A stretch of DNA of 35,503 nt from a virus (taxonomy: Duplodnaviria; Heunggongvirae; Uroviricota; Caudoviricetes): the IMG/VR virus record IMGVR_UViG_2896595138_000012, one strand, 5' to 3'. How positions within the stretch are numbered: position 1 is the first letter of the stretch; the number at the start of each line of letters is the position of its first letter. Under the pieces are notes generated by a model that saw nothing but the letters and a program-made list of their open reading frames with translations, had not been told where the DNA came from and ran no database searches. Below, piece after piece: positions 1-6,702 of this stretch. Made by a program: the position numbers and the translations under genes.

Positions 1-1002
1 TTACCCTCTATTGTCAAAAGGGTTCAATTCAACAGCAGCCTCTAAATGACCTGGAGCAAAATGCGCATAACGCATAGTCATTTTTATATCGCTATGCCCC
101 AGTATTTTTTGCAACACAAGAATATTTCCGCCCCGCATCATAAAATGACTGGCAAACGTGTGACGTAGCACATGAGTTAATTGCCCATCAGGAAGCTCGA
201 TCTTCGCTCTCTTAATTGCAGCGTCAAAAGCCTCATAACATGGTGAAAATAGCGCTCCTCGTTTTTTAGGAAGCATAGCCTGCAATTGAGGTGAAATCGG
301 TACAGTGCGGTTCTTCTTTCCTTTAGTTTTAACAAATGTGATTCGACCGGGCAGTACTTGAGATTGCTTTAATCCTTCTGCTTCACTCCACCGAGCACCA
401 GTCGCAAGCCCAATACGGACAACAACCCCCAAATCTTTATTCCGTGACTCATCACACGCAATCAGAAGGCGTTCAATCTCATCTACATACAGAAACGCCA
501 GTTCCTTTTCTTCCTCACGAAACTTGCGAATACCAGTCAGGGGGTTTTCACCAGACCACTCCCCAAGGCGCTTCAGTTCGGCAAAAACAGCATGTAGATA
601 TGACTGCTCGCGATTAACGGTTGCTTCACTAAGTTTTTTCTTCCCCTTGGGATTCCATTCTCCTGATAGCCTTCTTTCCCGATAAGTAGCAAACATATTT
701 TTGTCAAACTGAGAAGCAAATGGATCTCCCAGCCTGGAACAAATCGCCTCAAGTTTGACTTTGCGCTCTGCACCAGAGGACAAGGTTTTACCGTACATAT
801 CAAACCAACGAGCAATCAACTCAGAAAGACGAGGACCAGAACCATCTTGAAACTCGTCTCCAACTCTACTATTCATTAAACGGCGCTCATAAGAGAGCGC
901 CTCACTTTTTGTCGCAAACTGTTTACGAATGCGTTTTCCCGATGCCCCGTAGGGATAACATTCGCAAAGCCATTTACCTGATGGAATCTTACGAACCGAC
1001 AT
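1..1002 (-). CDS. int: Tyrosine site-specific integrase (P2-like phage integrase)
   Basis: 333-aa ORF; C-terminal catalytic region HVLRHTFASHF ... MTMRYAHFAP typical of tyrosine recombinases; stop codon at positions 1-3 so attL lies outside the window. Confidence 0.9.
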   Translation of the reverse strand: MSVRKIPSGKWLCECYPYGASGKRIRKQFATKSEALSYERRLMNSRVGDEFQDGSGPRLSELIARWFDMYGKTLSSGAERKVKLEAICSRLGDPFASQFDKNMFATYRERRLSGEWNPKGKKKLSEATVNREQSYLHAVFAELKRLGEWSGENPLTGIRKFREEEKELAFLYVDEIERLLIACDESRNKDLGVVVRIGLATGARWSEAEGLKQSQVLPGRITFVKTKGKKNRTVPISPQLQAMLPKKRGALFSPCYEAFDAAIKRAKIELPDGQLTHVLRHTFASHFMMRGGNILVLQKILGHSDIKMTMRYAHFAPGHLEAAVELNPFDNRG

Positions 1003-1007
1003 TTTAG

Positions 1008-1355
1008 TTACTTATCACATAAATCAAATGCAGCCTTAGTGACATCCCCCAGACTCTTTTTTAACCCTGGGGCGGCATCATTATCTAGCCAAAATGGATT
1101 ATTGTTATCTAACGGTAACGCACCAAATGTTTTACCTTTTATTCGAGCCAAACCTGTAAGCGCATATAACTTATTATCGTCAAAATTCATCACATAAGGA
1201 TTACCATCAAGACACTGTAATTGAACCTCATCAGTATTAAATGGCCATACCCCATTGAAACTCTCACGTTCAATAGTTTTAAAAGGCATTGCGACGGCGG
1301 AAAAAGAAAACATAGATAAAAAAGTAACTAATAGTTGAACCTTTTTTACTTTCAT
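1008..1355 (-). CDS. Secreted small protein, YebY/DUF2511-like
   Basis: 115 aa; N-terminal signal peptide MKVKKVQLLVTFLSMFSFSAVA; two Cys; motif W-x-FN-x-DEV-x-L-x-C-x-GN-x-YV and C-terminal LC resemble the E. coli YebY family (recalled, not searched). Confidence 0.55.
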   Translation of the reverse strand: MKVKKVQLLVTFLSMFSFSAVAMPFKTIERESFNGVWPFNTDEVQLQCLDGNPYVMNFDDNKLYALTGLARIKGKTFGALPLDNNNPFWLDNDAAPGLKKSLGDVTKAAFDLCDK

Positions 1356-1384: not shown

Positions 1385-2032
1385 TTACAAATTAAAAAAC
1401 ACCCTAGAAATGGCGCCGCCTACCAAAACCCCTACGCAGATAAAGAATATTATTTCTTTTGGATAAAGTCGGAGTAATTCTGAAGCACGAAGTCGGACTT
1501 CTGGTAAGGTCGAACTCTCTGTGTGGCTTGATGCCGATTGTTGCTCTAACCACGACAATGCAGACTGTAACTGAGAACGAGTAAGATCGTTTAAACGTCC
1601 TGTACCGAAATTGATATGGCAATACCGCAGAAGTTTTTGTCGAAGTCCACAGTCTTCACTGTTACGTAGTAATAAACTTACAAGAGTCTTACAGGCATCA
1701 TGATCTTTACATCGCTCAAGCATTGCATGCAGAAAACTCTCCGCTGTTTTATATTGATTTACTGTCATATCATCAATACCAGCTACACCAATCTCCGCAT
1801 GTACTTTTTGCCAAATAATAAACGCTTCAGTATTGCTAGCTTCTGCAATAGCAGCAACCAAGCTATTTAGCTCCTTACGCTGAGCCTTAAGCAAAGGGCG
1901 ATCATCATCATTATTCGAAGGGATTGCGATATTGACGGTATGAGAACCATCATATCGCTCTATCTGAATATTCTTTTCGTGAAAATCACGCCCAGCAACG
2001 CGATTGTTTGAACCGTTTGAGTTGACGGCCAT
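1385..2032 (-). CDS. Hypothetical protein with C-terminal transmembrane anchor
   Basis: 215 aa; GGAGG Shine-Dalgarno 5 nt upstream of ATG; hydrophobic C-terminal segment IIFFICVGVLVGGAISRVFF; N-terminus carries NNRVAGRDF motif shared with the two adjacent HTH proteins. Confidence 0.6.
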   Translation of the reverse strand: MAVNSNGSNNRVAGRDFHEKNIQIERYDGSHTVNIAIPSNNDDDRPLLKAQRKELNSLVAAIAEASNTEAFIIWQKVHAEIGVAGIDDMTVNQYKTAESFLHAMLERCKDHDACKTLVSLLLRNSEDCGLRQKLLRYCHINFGTGRLNDLTRSQLQSALSWLEQQSASSHTESSTLPEVRLRASELLRLYPKEIIFFICVGVLVGGAISRVFFNL

Positions 2033-2047
2033 GTCACCTCCCTACTA

Positions 2048-2452
2048 TCACCTACCCTTAGTTTCGTTATAGTCACAACCAGCGATACGGTTATTACCGC
2101 CAGAAATATTTAACTCACGTCCTGATGGCTGAGTTTCCTTTTCACTGATCGCACCTTTTAAAGCCCCGATCACCGCGTTTTTCACATCTAACGAAGCTGC
2201 TCGAAAGCGAGTAATCAACTCCTGCTCATCATCGTTATAAGTTTCAGATGAGTGAATTCCCAACACAACATACTGAACATCAAGGCCAAAACGAGACAGC
2301 GCTGCCAAATACGCAGCATCAGGAAAACTATCTCCTTTCTCATATCTAAGCTGAGTTAGCTTTTTGACTCCGCCAATGTCGCTCATAGCAACTTGACTAA
2401 GTCCCAACCTTTCCCTTTCCTCACGCAACCGCTGACCAATATCACTTTTCAT
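2048..2452 (-). CDS. XRE-family helix-turn-helix transcriptional regulator
   Basis: 134 aa; N-terminal HTH (RLREERERLGLSQVAMSDIGGVKKLTQLRYEKG); C-terminal tail NNRIAGCDYNETKGR; paralog of the next gene. Confidence 0.8.
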   Translation of the reverse strand: MKSDIGQRLREERERLGLSQVAMSDIGGVKKLTQLRYEKGDSFPDAAYLAALSRFGLDVQYVVLGIHSSETYNDDEQELITRFRAASLDVKNAVIGALKGAISEKETQPSGRELNISGGNNRIAGCDYNETKGR

Positions 2453-2478
2453 ACAAAAACCTTGACAGGTATCTTTCG

Positions 2479-2904
2479 CTAACCCTTCGTTTCATTATAG
2501 TCACGACCTGCAATACGATGGCCTTTACCTGATACGTTTACCGTATTTGATGCAGAACTACCCGCAGTCAGGGCAGCAAGAGCTGCAGCCTTTACGGCAA
2601 GCGGAGCATTTCTAAAATGCTTGATAATTTCCATCTCATCACGGTTTAGAGCACCCCCGACAGCCTCACCAGTTAGTATGTATTGGACGTTAGCCCCATT
2701 AAGCGCAAATGAGAGCAAAACATCTCCCCCAGGTACCATAGTTCCCCGTTCGTACTTCCCCCAAGATTCTCGCGATACGCCGCAAAGAGCAGCAGCATCA
2801 GCCTGTTTGAGAGATAAACGCTTTCTCTCAGCCTTCAGTCTCGCACCACAAAGAGATGAAAAATTCACTTTTATACCTTGACTAAAGAGATCTATTGATC
2901 TCAT
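2479..2904 (-). CDS. XRE-family HTH regulator, candidate immunity repressor (P2 C / 186 CI position)
   Basis: 141 aa; HTH (ARLKAERKRLSLKQADAAALCGVSRESWGKYERG); first leftward gene at the divergent/face-to-face switch with the early operon; C-terminal tail GHRIAGRDYNETKG. Confidence 0.7.
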   Translation of the reverse strand: MRSIDLFSQGIKVNFSSLCGARLKAERKRLSLKQADAAALCGVSRESWGKYERGTMVPGGDVLLSFALNGANVQYILTGEAVGGALNRDEMEIIKHFRNAPLAVKAAALAALTAGSSASNTVNVSGKGHRIAGRDYNETKG

Positions 2905-2944
2905 AATTAATTAACAAACCATTAGATGATCACAATATACCACT
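2905..2944. promoter_or_regulatory. Lysis-lysogeny switch region between repressor-like gene and early operon
   Basis: Only 40 bp, AT-rich, separate the starts of the leftward repressor-like gene and the rightward early genes; in P2/186-type phages the opposing promoters overlap the gene starts; no operator was identified. Confidence 0.3.
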
Positions 2945-3151
2945 ATGAAACAAGTTCTTCACGATACCAGATCACGCATTCCGCGTAACACCGCCGCAGG
3001 TCCAAGACTGGCACTTCGGCTGTCCATCGAGGAGCGAGCCGTCATTGATGAAATGGCAGCTAAAGAACAACGCTCATCCTCTAACATGGCGCGCATGATC
3101 TTCCTTCGCGGCCTAGAGCTAACCCAGAAAGAACAAAACAAATCTTCCTGA
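2945..3151 (+). CDS. Small early regulatory protein (possible ribbon-helix-helix DNA binder)
   Basis: 68 aa; first gene of rightward early operon; segment RLSIEERAVIDEMAAKEQRSSSNMARMIFLRG is RHH-like; weak RBS. Confidence 0.45.
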   Translation: MKQVLHDTRSRIPRNTAAGPRLALRLSIEERAVIDEMAAKEQRSSSNMARMIFLRGLELTQKEQNKSS

Positions 3152-3167: not shown

Positions 3168-3371
3168 ATGTCAGGTATAACCATCAATATCAATGTGAAT
3201 GCCCCCTATGTATCCCTGCAGAAATATGCAGAGATAACAGGTATCCCTCTTAATACATGCAAAAAGATGTTGGCTGACGGTCGAATTATTATCCGCCCCA
3301 AACGTGCCAAAATGGAAAAGCCTGAAGTAAACCTTGTGGCGATGTTAAAAGACGCTTTGGCTAACAGCTAA
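3168..3371 (+). CDS. Cox-like excisionase/early regulator
   Basis: 67 aa; AGGAGG RBS; PYVSLQKYAEITGIPLNTCKKMLADGRI resembles P2 Cox N-terminal HTH (PYQEFAKLIGKSTGAVRRMIDKGKL, recalled). Confidence 0.5.
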   Translation: MSGITININVNAPYVSLQKYAEITGIPLNTCKKMLADGRIIIRPKRAKMEKPEVNLVAMLKDALANS

Positions 3372-5510: not shown

Positions 5511-5746
5511 AACCCGCCATTATCTGCATTCTGTGCGAGAGCACTGTCACCGGCGGCCATTACCGCATCAGGGAACGCCACATCAACCCTGACCGTTCGC
5601 TGCTGGACAACATCACCGGCCCGAATGATGAACGCGTGATCTGCCTGAACGACGGCTCGCAGTTACGCGTGCGCAATATCCGGCGCGAAATCACGCTCGA
5701 ACCCACCCCATTCACACGCGGGAAAAAACCGGAGAGTGACGCATGA
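5507..5746 (+). CDS. Hypothetical protein
   Basis: 79-aa ORF with overlapping start/stop coupling to neighbours. Confidence 0.5.
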   Translation: MKPAIICILCESTVTGGHYRIRERHINPDRSLLDNITGPNDERVICLNDGSQLRVRNIRREITLEPTPFTRGKKPESDA

Positions 5747-6702
5747 AAGGTATTCTGAACCAGCGCTCACCGCTCAAATGGGCGGGCGGCAAATTCAGTA
5801 TCATGCCGCAGCTGCGCGAATATTTACCCAAAGCCGCCTGCCTGATCGAACCCTTCGTGGGCGGCGGCTCGGTCTTCATGAACACGGATTATGACTATTA
5901 CGTATTGTGTGACAGCAACCCCGCGCTGATTAATTTCTACCAGCAACTGACGACCAACACCACGGAATTAATGGATCGTGCATGGTCACTCTTTAAGGAT
6001 GGCGGCACACCGGAAGCCTACAAACGCCATCGCGGAGCATTTAACACCATCGCGCTGGCCACCGACAGATTACGCGGAGAATCCCTGGAATGGGCAGCGC
6101 TGTTTCTGTACCTGAACCGCCATTGCTTTAACGGCCTGTACCGCACCAACCAAAAAGGCGAATTCAATGTGCCATTCGGCAAACACCGCATGCCTTATTT
6201 CCCCTGCCAGGAAATGCGCCTGTTTGCTGATAAAGCCAACGAGACCCGGACCCGCTTTATTCACGCGGATTTCCGTACAGCCTTCACAATGCCGGCTGAG
6301 ATCCACCGTTTTTCTTCGGTGCACGGCGATATCGCCATTTACTGCGATCCGCCCTACCTGCCACCGAACGGTAAAGAGGCGTTCACTCACTACAACGGCC
6401 GGGCATTTACCCGCAAAGACCACCGTGACCTTGCGGCGCTCATGATGAACGCCTGGCAACGTTACGGTATCCACCCGGTGGTCTCCAACAGTGACACCTC
6501 CGAAACCCGGCAGATCTATTCCTCGTTTGAGCTGCACACCCTGAGCGTTCGCCGCGCTGTGGCTGCCAGCAGCAGTGCACGCCAGCAGGCAAAAGAGGTG
6601 ATTGGTGTTTATCCGCCAGCCCGTGAGGTCCGGATCCGGGATGTCAATGCGGGCTGGCTGTCTCACATTCCCGCTCCACACCCCACCACGGAGATCATGT
6701 AA
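5743..6702 (+). CDS. dam: DNA adenine (N6) methyltransferase, Dam family
   Basis: 319 aa; N-terminal LKWAGGK and catalytic DPPY (IYCDPPYLPP) motifs, strong resemblance to E. coli Dam N-terminus. Confidence 0.9.
   Translation: MKGILNQRSPLKWAGGKFSIMPQLREYLPKAACLIEPFVGGGSVFMNTDYDYYVLCDSNPALINFYQQLTTNTTELMDRAWSLFKDGGTPEAYKRHRGAFNTIALATDRLRGESLEWAALFLYLNRHCFNGLYRTNQKGEFNVPFGKHRMPYFPCQEMRLFADKANETRTRFIHADFRTAFTMPAEIHRFSSVHGDIAIYCDPPYLPPNGKEAFTHYNGRAFTRKDHRDLAALMMNAWQRYGIHPVVSNSDTSETRQIYSSFELHTLSVRRAVAASSSARQQAKEVIGVYPPAREVRIRDVNAGWLSHIPAPHPTTEIM

Follow-up and report, generated by a model that had tools for sequence, protein, structure and literature searches.

We analysed a 35,503-nt stretch of viral DNA (IMG/VR record IMGVR_UViG_2896595138_000012; this whole stretch is called the window below), a P2-like prophage whose nearest named phage is Escherichia phage 520873 (Peduoviridae, Xuanwuvirus), with a focus on a short peptide that recurs at the ends of three neighbouring gene products. 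At the left end of the window, five genes point leftward, namely int, a DUF2511/YebY-like gene, a gene for a 215-residue membrane protein, and two genes for XRE-family helix-turn-helix (HTH) repressors, termed HTH_B and HTH_A. The open reading frame (ORF) of HTH_A (2479..2904, minus strand) ends in ...NVSGKGHRIAGRDYNETKG, that of HTH_B (2048..2452, minus strand) ends in ...NISGGNNRIAGCDYNETKGR, and the third gene, encoding the membrane protein (1385..2032, minus strand), begins with MAVNSNGSNNRVAGRDFHEK. Common to the three ends is a motif of about 17 residues, [VI]N.SG..NR[VI]AGRD[YF].E, which we also call the tag. It is represented by VNVSGKGHRIAGRDYNE in the tail of HTH_A (2491..2541, minus strand; 5 residues ahead of the stop), by LNISGGNNRIAGCDYNE in the tail of HTH_B (2063..2113, minus strand), where Cys replaces a near-invariant Arg, and by VNSNGSNNRVAGRDFHE at residues 3–19 of the membrane protein (1976..2026, minus strand), after which comes a second strand-like segment, NIQIERYDGSHTVNIAIPS. 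An earlier note on this DNA had remarked on one short peptide at the ends of three consecutive leftward genes, and all the elements it described are in place; it had also set the trio next to the integrase gene, but the DUF2511/YebY-like gene (1008..1355) intervenes.

HTH_A is a putative XRE-family immunity repressor of 129 residues (2479..2868, minus strand), recognized by the Pfam profiles HTH_31 (35.1 bits; cutoff 27) and HTH_3 (25.7 bits; cutoff 23). Its maximal ORF starts at ATG 2904 (141 residues), but translation probably starts at GTG 2868, because this start is favoured both by a conserved GTCAAGGT box in the alignment with the E. coli VL40 and O26 sequences and by the RefSeq annotation of the VL40 homologue. 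The second XRE repressor, HTH_B, has 134 residues and is 39% identical to HTH_A; it scores under the Pfam cutoffs (HTH_31, 23.2 bits; HTH_3, 19.0 bits), yet is homologous to HTH_A over its full length (E 2e-27). The HTH gene occupies the position of the P2 C gene, opposite Arc- and Cox-like genes, and homologues are annotated as 'immunity repressor' or 'repressor' in phages Carl1 and Ps59. In the Fc02 paper, a temperature-sensitive mutation pinpoints the repressor of a B3-like phage, whose position is equivalent; the protein is a different one, and the support it lends is positional only. The repressor contains no LexA-like self-cleavage domain, and its HTH region gives weak matches to antitoxins of the MqsA/HipB type. 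An AlphaFold2 model of HTH_B, based on 66 homologues, comprises a confident HTH domain (residues 1–65), two helices (74–105) and a tail (106–134) with a predicted local distance difference test (pLDDT) score <50; the two helices are more likely to provide a dimer interface than the tag is. In the listed homologues from other phages, a basic cluster usually closes the repressor tail (NENKK, NKNTKRK, GGKKKQ, GRKKKRES, RRKRRNDRD), while the repressors of the window end in one or two basic residues only (ETKG, ETKGR). Such basic tail ends resemble the MuA-type ends recognized by ClpX (the C-motif).

The third product is predicted to be a C-tail-anchored membrane protein with an Flk_N domain, on the evidence of its AlphaFold2 model, the presence of PF27202 in its homologues and PHROG 5825. 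In the model, residues 1–40 have a pLDDT <50, a helical Flk_N domain at about 45–170 reaches a pLDDT of about 90, and a transmembrane (TM) helix spans residues 191–214; since the protein would be tail-anchored at its C-terminus, the motif would be displayed on a cytoplasmic N-terminus. Precomputed Flk_N assignments exist for the 99%-identical cluster, and 119 of the 120 listed homologues have them as well. The NCBIfam profile of Flk itself (NF007987) matches partially (residues 39–165, E 1.7e-15), with 57.2 bits against an equivalog cutoff of 353 and 127 of 339 profile positions covered, and hence the protein does not qualify as an Flk equivalog. Flk (Fluke/RflH), an inhibitor tethered to the membrane, keeps the flagellar type III secretion switch in its early state (PMC13344023). 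The phage protein resembles the Flk of Salmonella and E. coli in its helical Flk_N domain, C-terminal membrane anchor and largely cytoplasmic bulk. In contrast, chromosomal Flk proteins have 330–430 residues, Pro/Gly-rich N-termini and no N-terminal tag, and nothing ties the phage protein to flagella. Sequence searches found no relatives of solved structure, and a fold search of the Flk_N model against BFVD returned nothing at E <= 0.001. Among the 141 Flk_N proteins recovered from a search space of 1.84 billion cluster representatives, the N-terminal tags of the phage-type members (about 180–330 residues) fall into two or three flavours and some intermediate forms, for example VGDVAGRDIINH. 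In phage proteins of the regulatory or anti-repressor type (P0345, P0374, P0376 and P0379, the first of which also has a weak match to GemA), Flk_N-like helical domains also lie C-terminal to Rha, AntA and Bro-N domains, which is a weak hint at a regulatory role.

A scan of all six frames of the window with the strict motif pattern returned exactly three occurrences, each at a protein end, and no tagged protein besides the repressors and the membrane protein. The Smith-Waterman score of each repressor against the membrane protein is 54, compared with 28.6–29.0 +/- 4.7 for shuffled sequences, none of which reached 54 in 2000 trials. The shuffles, the six-frame count and the conservation described below rule out chance similarity. 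At the DNA level, the identity of about 80% that the earlier note had given for 2056–2092 versus 2484–2520 was measured as 30 of 37 positions (81%), and a repeat search extended over 45 nt at 80% identity, with one copy of the direct repeat at 2045..2089 (the 3' end of HTH_B and a few bases past its stop) and the other at 2473..2517 (the 3' end of HTH_A). Across the 17 aligned codons, however, identical residues are specified by the same codon in 5 of 11 cases between HTH_A and HTH_B, 4 of 9 between HTH_A and the membrane protein, and 2 of 9 between HTH_B and the membrane protein; the nucleotide identity of repressor tail and partner N-terminus is only about 55–63%. The pattern points to the peptide, rather than the DNA, as the conserved entity and the apparent target of selection. 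Because codons for identical residues mostly differ, the motif is not the product of a recent duplication or capture, and the codon comparison likewise excludes a recent gene conversion. The motif on the membrane protein is also present in relatives less than 50% identical, and judged by this distribution it is old. Thus, the proposal in the earlier note that the 3' end of a repressor gene had been captured as the 5' end of the next gene is not borne out. Another candidate, a fusion of repressor and membrane protein through read-through or frameshifting, was also rejected: the TGA stop of HTH_B is followed by an in-frame TAG TAG (2042–2050, minus strand) and then by GGAGG, the ribosome-binding site of the membrane-protein gene, giving three in-frame stops, and the relative frames of the two genes differ between loci with gaps of 0–22 nt.

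The tagged pair is widely conserved. Homologues of the membrane protein across Enterobacterales all start M.VNS.G..NR.[AS]GRD[FY].E..IQI..[FY]DG.HT[IV]NIAIPS. To avoid dependence on the motif, genomes were scanned with the patterns [FY]DG[RS]HT[IV]N[IV] and [YF]C[HN][IV][NHQ]FGTG, which gave 11 loci from nine genera; in all 10 of the 10 intact loci a tagged HTH tail, ending ..N[VI]SG.GNR[VI]AGRD[FY].EN.K, precedes a gene with the matching N-terminus (Rosenbergiella, Mixta, Izhakiella, Enterobacter, Erwinia, Kosakonia, Yersinia and Serratia). From the repressor side, 102 of 120 HTH_A homologues carry the motif within about 15 residues of the C-terminus, and in a control, 4 of 4 repressor homologues have a tagged protein encoded downstream. 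Among 80 IMG/VR contigs, 78 loci could be scored, and in 71 of them the final 22 residues of the upstream ORF contain the motif; in 6 of the 7 exceptions the tagged repressor is one small gene farther upstream or is frameshifted, and none of the exception loci that were scanned in six frames had a motif copy outside those two positions. Conservation on both proteins, taken over 45 non-redundant pairs, is 97–100% at G, R, A/G, R, D and E, except for Ala on the partner side (88%). The motif lies 2–6 residues from the repressor C-terminus and 5–12 from the partner N-terminus, and the genes are separated by 0–22 nt, sometimes with an ATGA overlap. The module also occurs in Klebsiella, Salmonella, Serratia, Yersinia, Pectobacterium, Photorhabdus, Pseudomonas phage B3 and Burkholderia phages. 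The earlier note had suggested looking for the motif in other prophage HTH proteins and had been ready to abandon its idea if homologous prophages did not conserve it; the 102 of 120 homologues and the 10 of 10 motif-independent loci answer the first point, and the conservation in phages of Enterobacterales, Pseudomonas and Burkholderia the second. Its description of a P2-type immunity region is borne out by the P2-type gene content and by the proximity to phage 520873, while its expectation that the arrangement would be unusual there holds in one sense only: within this lineage tagged pairs are the rule, but we found no paper that describes the repressor/membrane-protein pair in literature searches on Flk, Xuanwuvirus, tail-anchored proteins, and amyloid together with prophage repressors or induction.

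The tail and the N-terminus also vary together. Closely related to HTH_A are repressors of Mu-like prophages, encoded beside transposase, MuB-like and Ner-like genes; their tails differ, and the Flk_N protein encoded downstream begins with a variant that matches the tail of its own repressor. In an E. coli Mu-like pair, the tail ..IHGDVLGNVIKGNVTIG.. / ..QVIHGDVLGNVIKGNVTIGTGG.. is accompanied by the N-terminus MSKEKQTVNGDVGNVVSGDVTIH; in a second Mu-like pair, the tail ..FHGSVGQVIKGDATYEKGVTFNVGG / ..QIFHGSVGQVIKGDATYEKGVTFNVGG.. by MTQSFHGDTGVVAGGDVFNVTL; and in a third, ..TFHGSVGQSVAGNVT.. / ..QTFHGSVGQSVAGNVT..GVTFNVG.. by MSQDFHGDVGQAAAGDI.. / MSQDFHGDVGQAAAGDINNYGVSISL. The Burkholderia P2-like phages Carl1 and phiE202 combine the tail ..QNFEGANIGQHVTGDVT.. 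with the N-terminus MNQKFDGEIGQVAGGDVK.., and a further matched pair from them couples ..QQDFSAASIGQQVSGDVTGPFTINM.. with MDQKFSGEVGQVAGRDVKNSGAQASVNIH. Other flavours seen in Mu-like and Burkholderia P2-like phages are HGDVGNV..G.VTI and F.G..GQV..GD. Profile comparison supports the homology of the partners with a probability of 99.5% for the Mu-like and 83% for the Burkholderia proteins. In 12 representative pairs, chosen with partner bodies less than 50% identical, cognate ends score 49.9 on average and non-cognate ends 31.5, and none of 20000 permutations reaches the observed sum. The Mu-like repressor P0185 is 68% identical to residues 1–105 of HTH_A, the similarity stops exactly where the tails begin, and its different tail matches its own partner. 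HTH_B, in turn, agrees with HTH_A in the class of both tail and partner, although the two repressors are only 39% identical. Because of these two cases, a similar core with another tail and a dissimilar core with the same tail, the class of the tail follows the partner and not the DNA-binding core. Conservation at both ends and co-variation between the partners favour one of the suggestions of the earlier note, that of a shared functional tag in the form of a partner-binding peptide; its other suggestion, a degron, is disfavoured by the coexistence of differing, internally matched flavours in phages of one host species.

These data also bear on the view that the peptide has no function of its own and is either a relic of a gene that was duplicated or split long ago, or a recombination linker for the swapping of repressor modules. 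Where the variable repressor module meets the partner module, the shared homology coincides exactly with the tail, and the 80% direct repeat formed by the tails of HTH_A and HTH_B could mediate deletion. But a DNA linker would be conserved as DNA, which is at odds with the 55–63% nucleotide identity given above, and the peptide has been kept while synonymous sites diverged. Moreover, near-invariant G, R, A, G, R, D and E residues recur on both proteins across distant hosts, and independent motif classes are each matched within their pairs. We therefore regard a functionless peptide as very improbable.

The body of the tagged partner, on the other hand, is far from constant. The Mu-like and Burkholderia partners have an added extracytoplasmic C-terminal domain, which would give them the one-pass topology of a sensor. 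This extra domain extends for about 50–130 residues past the TM helix and has conserved Cys residues (e.g. HCEYGG..C); the loci concerned are L015 (4459–5445), L016 (4539–5495), L114 (3060–3806) and L115 (2964–3707). In Mu-like prophages of Photorhabdus and Klebsiella (L126, 2417–2779; L129, 2411–2773), the tagged partner is a protein of 114–120 residues with a CPYC..CRHC zinc ribbon and two hydrophobic helices. In Pseudomonas phage B3 (L124, 2569–3156), ORF18 (..ISVTGDGNRTAGRDFHERKE) is followed by ORF20 (VNIEVTGSNNIVAGRDFIEN..; 195 residues, two TM helices), which has in common with the Flk_N proteins the tag and the first helix only. Each of these non-Flk_N tagged partners directly follows a repressor with a matching tail, and some partners carry two tandem copies of the motif (P0281, P0298). 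In every locus read, the partner is a membrane protein with a body that varies, so that the constant elements are the repressor tail, the matching N-terminus and the membrane anchor. A varying body with a constant anchor suggests that the tag works with its twin and not with the Flk_N domain.

Our favoured reading, to which we assign a probability of roughly one half, is that the recurring peptide serves as a mutual pairing tag, by which the immunity repressor is coupled to a membrane protein transcribed along with it. The tag would sit at two flexible ends, the C-terminal tail of the repressor and the cytoplasmic N-terminus of the partner encoded directly downstream, apparently in the same leftward operon. 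The two copies would pair directly, probably as short β-strands punctuated by Gly, Asn and Asp, and part of the repressor pool would thereby be held at the inner membrane, with its availability tied to the state of the membrane protein. The latter would then serve the lysogenic switch as an anti-repressor or sensor tethered to the membrane, in phages that have no RecA-cleavable domain in their repressors. Mutual pairing is favoured because the ends are unfolded in the models, carry the same peptide, co-vary, and keep the tag when the cytoplasmic domain of the partner is replaced. Both ends are probably flexible, because AlphaFold2 gives them pLDDT values <50 beside confidently modelled domains. 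We infer the physical pairing, as well as the direction and the consequence of the coupling, from such patterns in sequences and models. Several points weigh against this reading: AlphaFold2 folds neither tag; the tag is short and fairly charged (R, D, E, K); within the main class no fine-scale co-variation was seen, for instance in the choice of I or V at R[VI]AG; the co-variation rests on a few class switches and could reflect co-inheritance of a cassette of tail and partner gene instead of co-adaptation; and the IMG/VR scan was made with the motif itself, which biases that sample on the partner side. In addition, either direction of control fits the data, as the repressor may be under the control of the membrane protein or may itself neutralize that protein. 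We prefer the anti-repressor or sensor direction because Flk is a tethered inhibitor and because the longer partners have a sensor-like topology.

The opposite direction leads to an alternative in which the repressor acts as an antitoxin of an abortive-infection or addiction system: its tail would cap the self-assembling tag of a latent effector that damages membranes or arrests growth, and loss, titration or destruction of the repressor would free the effector. The gene order resembles that of type II toxin-antitoxin systems (HigA, MqsA, HipB), with an XRE-type HTH protein whose low-confidence C-terminal tail is predicted to be flexible and a second gene 0–22 nt further on, sometimes in ATGA overlap; this likeness is joined by the weak MqsA/HipB-type antitoxin matches, and by the nature of the partners, which are small membrane proteins with varied bodies, including the two-TM forms of 114–120 residues. 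A precedent from E. coli prophages exists in Bab/Agp, where a shared motif governs a membrane-acting effector (bioRxiv 10.1101/2024.11.07.622273). Antitoxin tails, in contrast, do not copy a segment of the toxin, and the second gene here encodes no known toxin fold. PADLOC gave no match for the membrane protein and only HTH-level RmrA matches for the repressors, by which a known defence system is ruled out. Furthermore, Flk_N is strongly conserved with many invariant residues, the founder of the family is a regulatory inhibitor and no toxin (PMC13344023), and the upstream gene is placed as an immunity repressor with a putative operator in the early promoter. On balance we consider an antitoxin role doubtful.

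As for the manner in which the tags might pair, the closest formal parallel is offered by amyloid signalling pairs, such as HET-S/NWD2, the BASS1–10 Bell/NLR pairs and the BASS11 pair Bab/Agp. In an amyloid-like version, drawn by analogy, the clustered membrane protein would nucleate a cross-β form of the tag and template the repressor tails into aggregates, so that repression is switched off. The genomic logic is the same as that by which BASS/FASS motifs are defined, namely a motif of about 20 residues at the C-terminus of one product and the N-terminus of the adjacent collinear one (bioRxiv 10.1101/2020.01.06.895854). The motifs lie in flexible ends in both cases, with strand-like segments broken by Gly or Asn and with one partner at the membrane, and Bab/Agp, too, is prophage-borne in E. 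coli. Its BASS11 consists of short β-strands split by glycines with disordered flanks, in agreement with the G/N/D-punctuated pattern of the tag; both tags have very low confidence in monomer models, and the tandem motif copies of some partners (P0281, P0298) recall the pseudo-repeats of HET-s. The known pairs, however, join an NLR/STAND or TPR sensor to a Bell/HeLo effector, whereas here an XRE repressor is joined to an Flk_N, zinc-ribbon or other membrane protein; no NLR/STAND or Bell/HeLo-type domain was detected in either partner, even though the motif on adjacent genes is present. The tagged membrane protein here has its motif at the N-terminus, the core is unrelated in sequence, more charged and only about 17 residues long, and plain stoichiometric β-pairing covers the same sequence facts. 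Templated aggregation is thus an unlikely explanation. Were it true, this would be the first amyloid-type signalling pair on a transcription factor instead of a cell-death effector, and in SOS-independent phages of the P2-like and Mu-like kinds lysogeny would be switched as the repressor is aggregated by templating, or sequestered, at the membrane.

A different precedent comes from Bacillus, in the SinR/SinI repressor/anti-repressor pair (also SlrR/SlrA), reportedly treated by Lewis et al. in J Mol Biol in 1998. There, an XRE-type repressor with kinship to those of phages is antagonized by the product of an adjacent gene with a copy of the C-terminal interaction segment of the repressor, through formation of a heteromer. 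The likeness at the sequence level is that a C-terminal segment of the repressor is shared with the neighbouring product. The Sin proteins, though, use a helical hook in a folded heterodimer with a soluble partner, while the tag is a Gly/Asn-rich, strand-type peptide left unfolded by AlphaFold2, and the partner here is membrane-anchored and much larger. No helical hook was found: the tag is non-helical, with pLDDT <50 in HTH_B and low confidence in the membrane protein.

It is also conceivable that the two tags do not meet but have a reader in common, such as a host protease (FtsH, ClpXP or Lon) for which the tag is a degron, or the Flk_N domain, where the N-terminal tag would be an intramolecular pseudo-ligand in competition with the repressor tail. 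Flexible termini are typical entry sites for proteases, and basic clusters end the repressor tails (KK, KRK, KKKQ, RKKKRES). A single host reader such as a protease is nevertheless improbable, because differing matched classes coexist in phages of one host species (P2-like versus Mu-like in E. coli). Against Flk_N as the reader, the tag pair is kept where the partner is without an Flk_N domain, and AlphaFold2 does not dock the N-terminal tag on Flk_N; nor is a third tagged protein encoded in the window. We thus deem any common third-party reader decidedly unlikely.

The presence of two repressors raises the question of their relationship. The region is present in 525 of 5426 complete E. coli genomes (about 10%), none of which covers more than 82% of the query. 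HTH_B is the sole repressor in 505 related E. coli genomes, and an A-type repressor stands alone before the membrane-protein gene in E. coli VL40 and in metagenomic contigs (L116–L119). Positions 1–2476 of the window are 99% identical to E. coli O26 11368, and a 444-bp segment with HTH_A and its operator region (2477..2920) replaces 27 bp of the B-only prophages, as revealed by blastn against O26 11368 and phage 520873. The tandem is not an accident of assembly, since the same arrangement recurs in public assemblies: the exact HTH_A protein is indexed in 125 blocks of these, all 4 of the 4 arrangements shown have HTH_A, HTH_B and the Flk_N protein in tandem, and one public tandem is 99.7% identical to the window over 5 kb.

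A promoter scan identified a rightward early (lytic) promoter of the sigma-70 type, TTGACT-18-CATAAT, at 2878..2907 (plus strand). Within its spacer lies the palindrome GAGATCTATTGATCTC (2887–2902), unique in the window, which is the putative operator of HTH_A. A-type phages share GAGATCTATTGATCTC, while B-type phages have GGTATCTTTTTTGATACC at the same position of the spacer (about 2975–3000 in locus L001), a site found nowhere in the window. HTH_A would accordingly seem to control this prophage, because its putative operator lies in the early promoter, and HTH_B would be an orphan without a cognate operator here that could only add immunity against B-type relatives, resulting in double immunity. 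The two repressors appear to be hetero-immune alleles joined by recombination, because they are 39% identical, each occurs alone elsewhere and each has its own putative palindromic operator. The same observations rule out a local tandem duplication, which the earlier note had put forward. In HTH_B of all tandem copies (L120–L123), the near-invariant Arg of the tag is replaced by Cys (AGCDY; codon 2075–2077), whereas the B-only phages (O26, 520873) keep AGRDY; the change represents one event only and is compatible with a relaxed constraint as well as with selection against competition for the single partner. In A-only relatives, it is the tail that aligns to those of both HTH_A and HTH_B, where the variable repressor module gives way to the membrane-protein module.

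The wider setting is that of a P2-type immunity region. Like the C gene of P2 and the CI gene of 186, the repressor gene is a leftward gene upstream of int that faces an early promoter and Cox/Arc-type genes, and it encodes no LexA-like self-cleavage domain. It differs from these in belonging to the XRE HTH_31 family, in its putative operator, a single palindrome in the promoter spacer, and in the tagged tail and tagged membrane partner, neither of which, to our knowledge, is found in P2 or 186. We also considered integration-dependent immunity as in the mycobacteriophage BPs, where attP lies inside the repressor gene and integration removes a C-terminal degradation tag. This was ruled out, as two genes (for the membrane protein and the DUF2511 protein) and int separate the repressor from the prophage end that adjoins yecA, and the full tail is encoded in the integrated state. 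The pair is thus neither Flk, nor a known defence system, nor a case of integration-dependent immunity.

The leftward block ends with the integrase gene (1..1002, minus strand), identified from its ORF and the RefSeq annotation of the 99% identical O26 region. Between it and the membrane-protein gene lies a variable cargo slot, here occupied by the gene for the DUF2511/YebY-like secreted protein (1008..1355, minus strand; Pfam DUF2511) and in other prophages by VasI-like genes, AAA_15/AAA_21 genes or unannotated ORFs (L004, L006, L008, L127, L131, L132); the slot looks like a moron or defence hotspot. Opposite the block, genes for Arc-like (2945..3151), Cox-like (3168..3371) and DUF4761 proteins run rightward. 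The Arc-like gene (2945–3151, plus strand) is backed by PHROG 3431 (E 8e-28) and by the record of phage 520873, while RefSeq instead has a hypothetical ORF of 45 residues at this place on the repressor strand (L001, 3046–3183, minus strand). The early region includes a D12-class N6-adenine DNA methyltransferase (5743–6702, plus strand), of a family also found beside Mu-like versions of the module (L016, L125), and an IS110-family transposase (DEDD_Tnp_IS110 and Transposase_20; 12333–13529, plus strand) lies between the replication and the portal/terminase genes. The rest of the window codes for a P2-type replication protein A, portal, terminase, and P2-family capsid and tail proteins.

The module of repressor and membrane protein is widespread, and, while its principle has precedents, its components and its target, a lysogeny repressor, are new. 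A RecA-cleavable domain is absent from the repressors of P2-like and Mu-like phages, and the sensing and release of lysogeny in these phages are poorly understood. If the tags pair, they would constitute a new wiring of a genetic switch to the membrane, and the principle of one motif on adjacent gene products would reach past NLR and cell-death systems. As the junction of a variable DNA-binding module and a constant partner module, the tail accounts for the exchange of immunity modules and, by the same modular logic, for the ability of one prophage to carry two repressors. The 17-residue tag offers a concrete, testable handle on the localization, stability or induction of the repressor.

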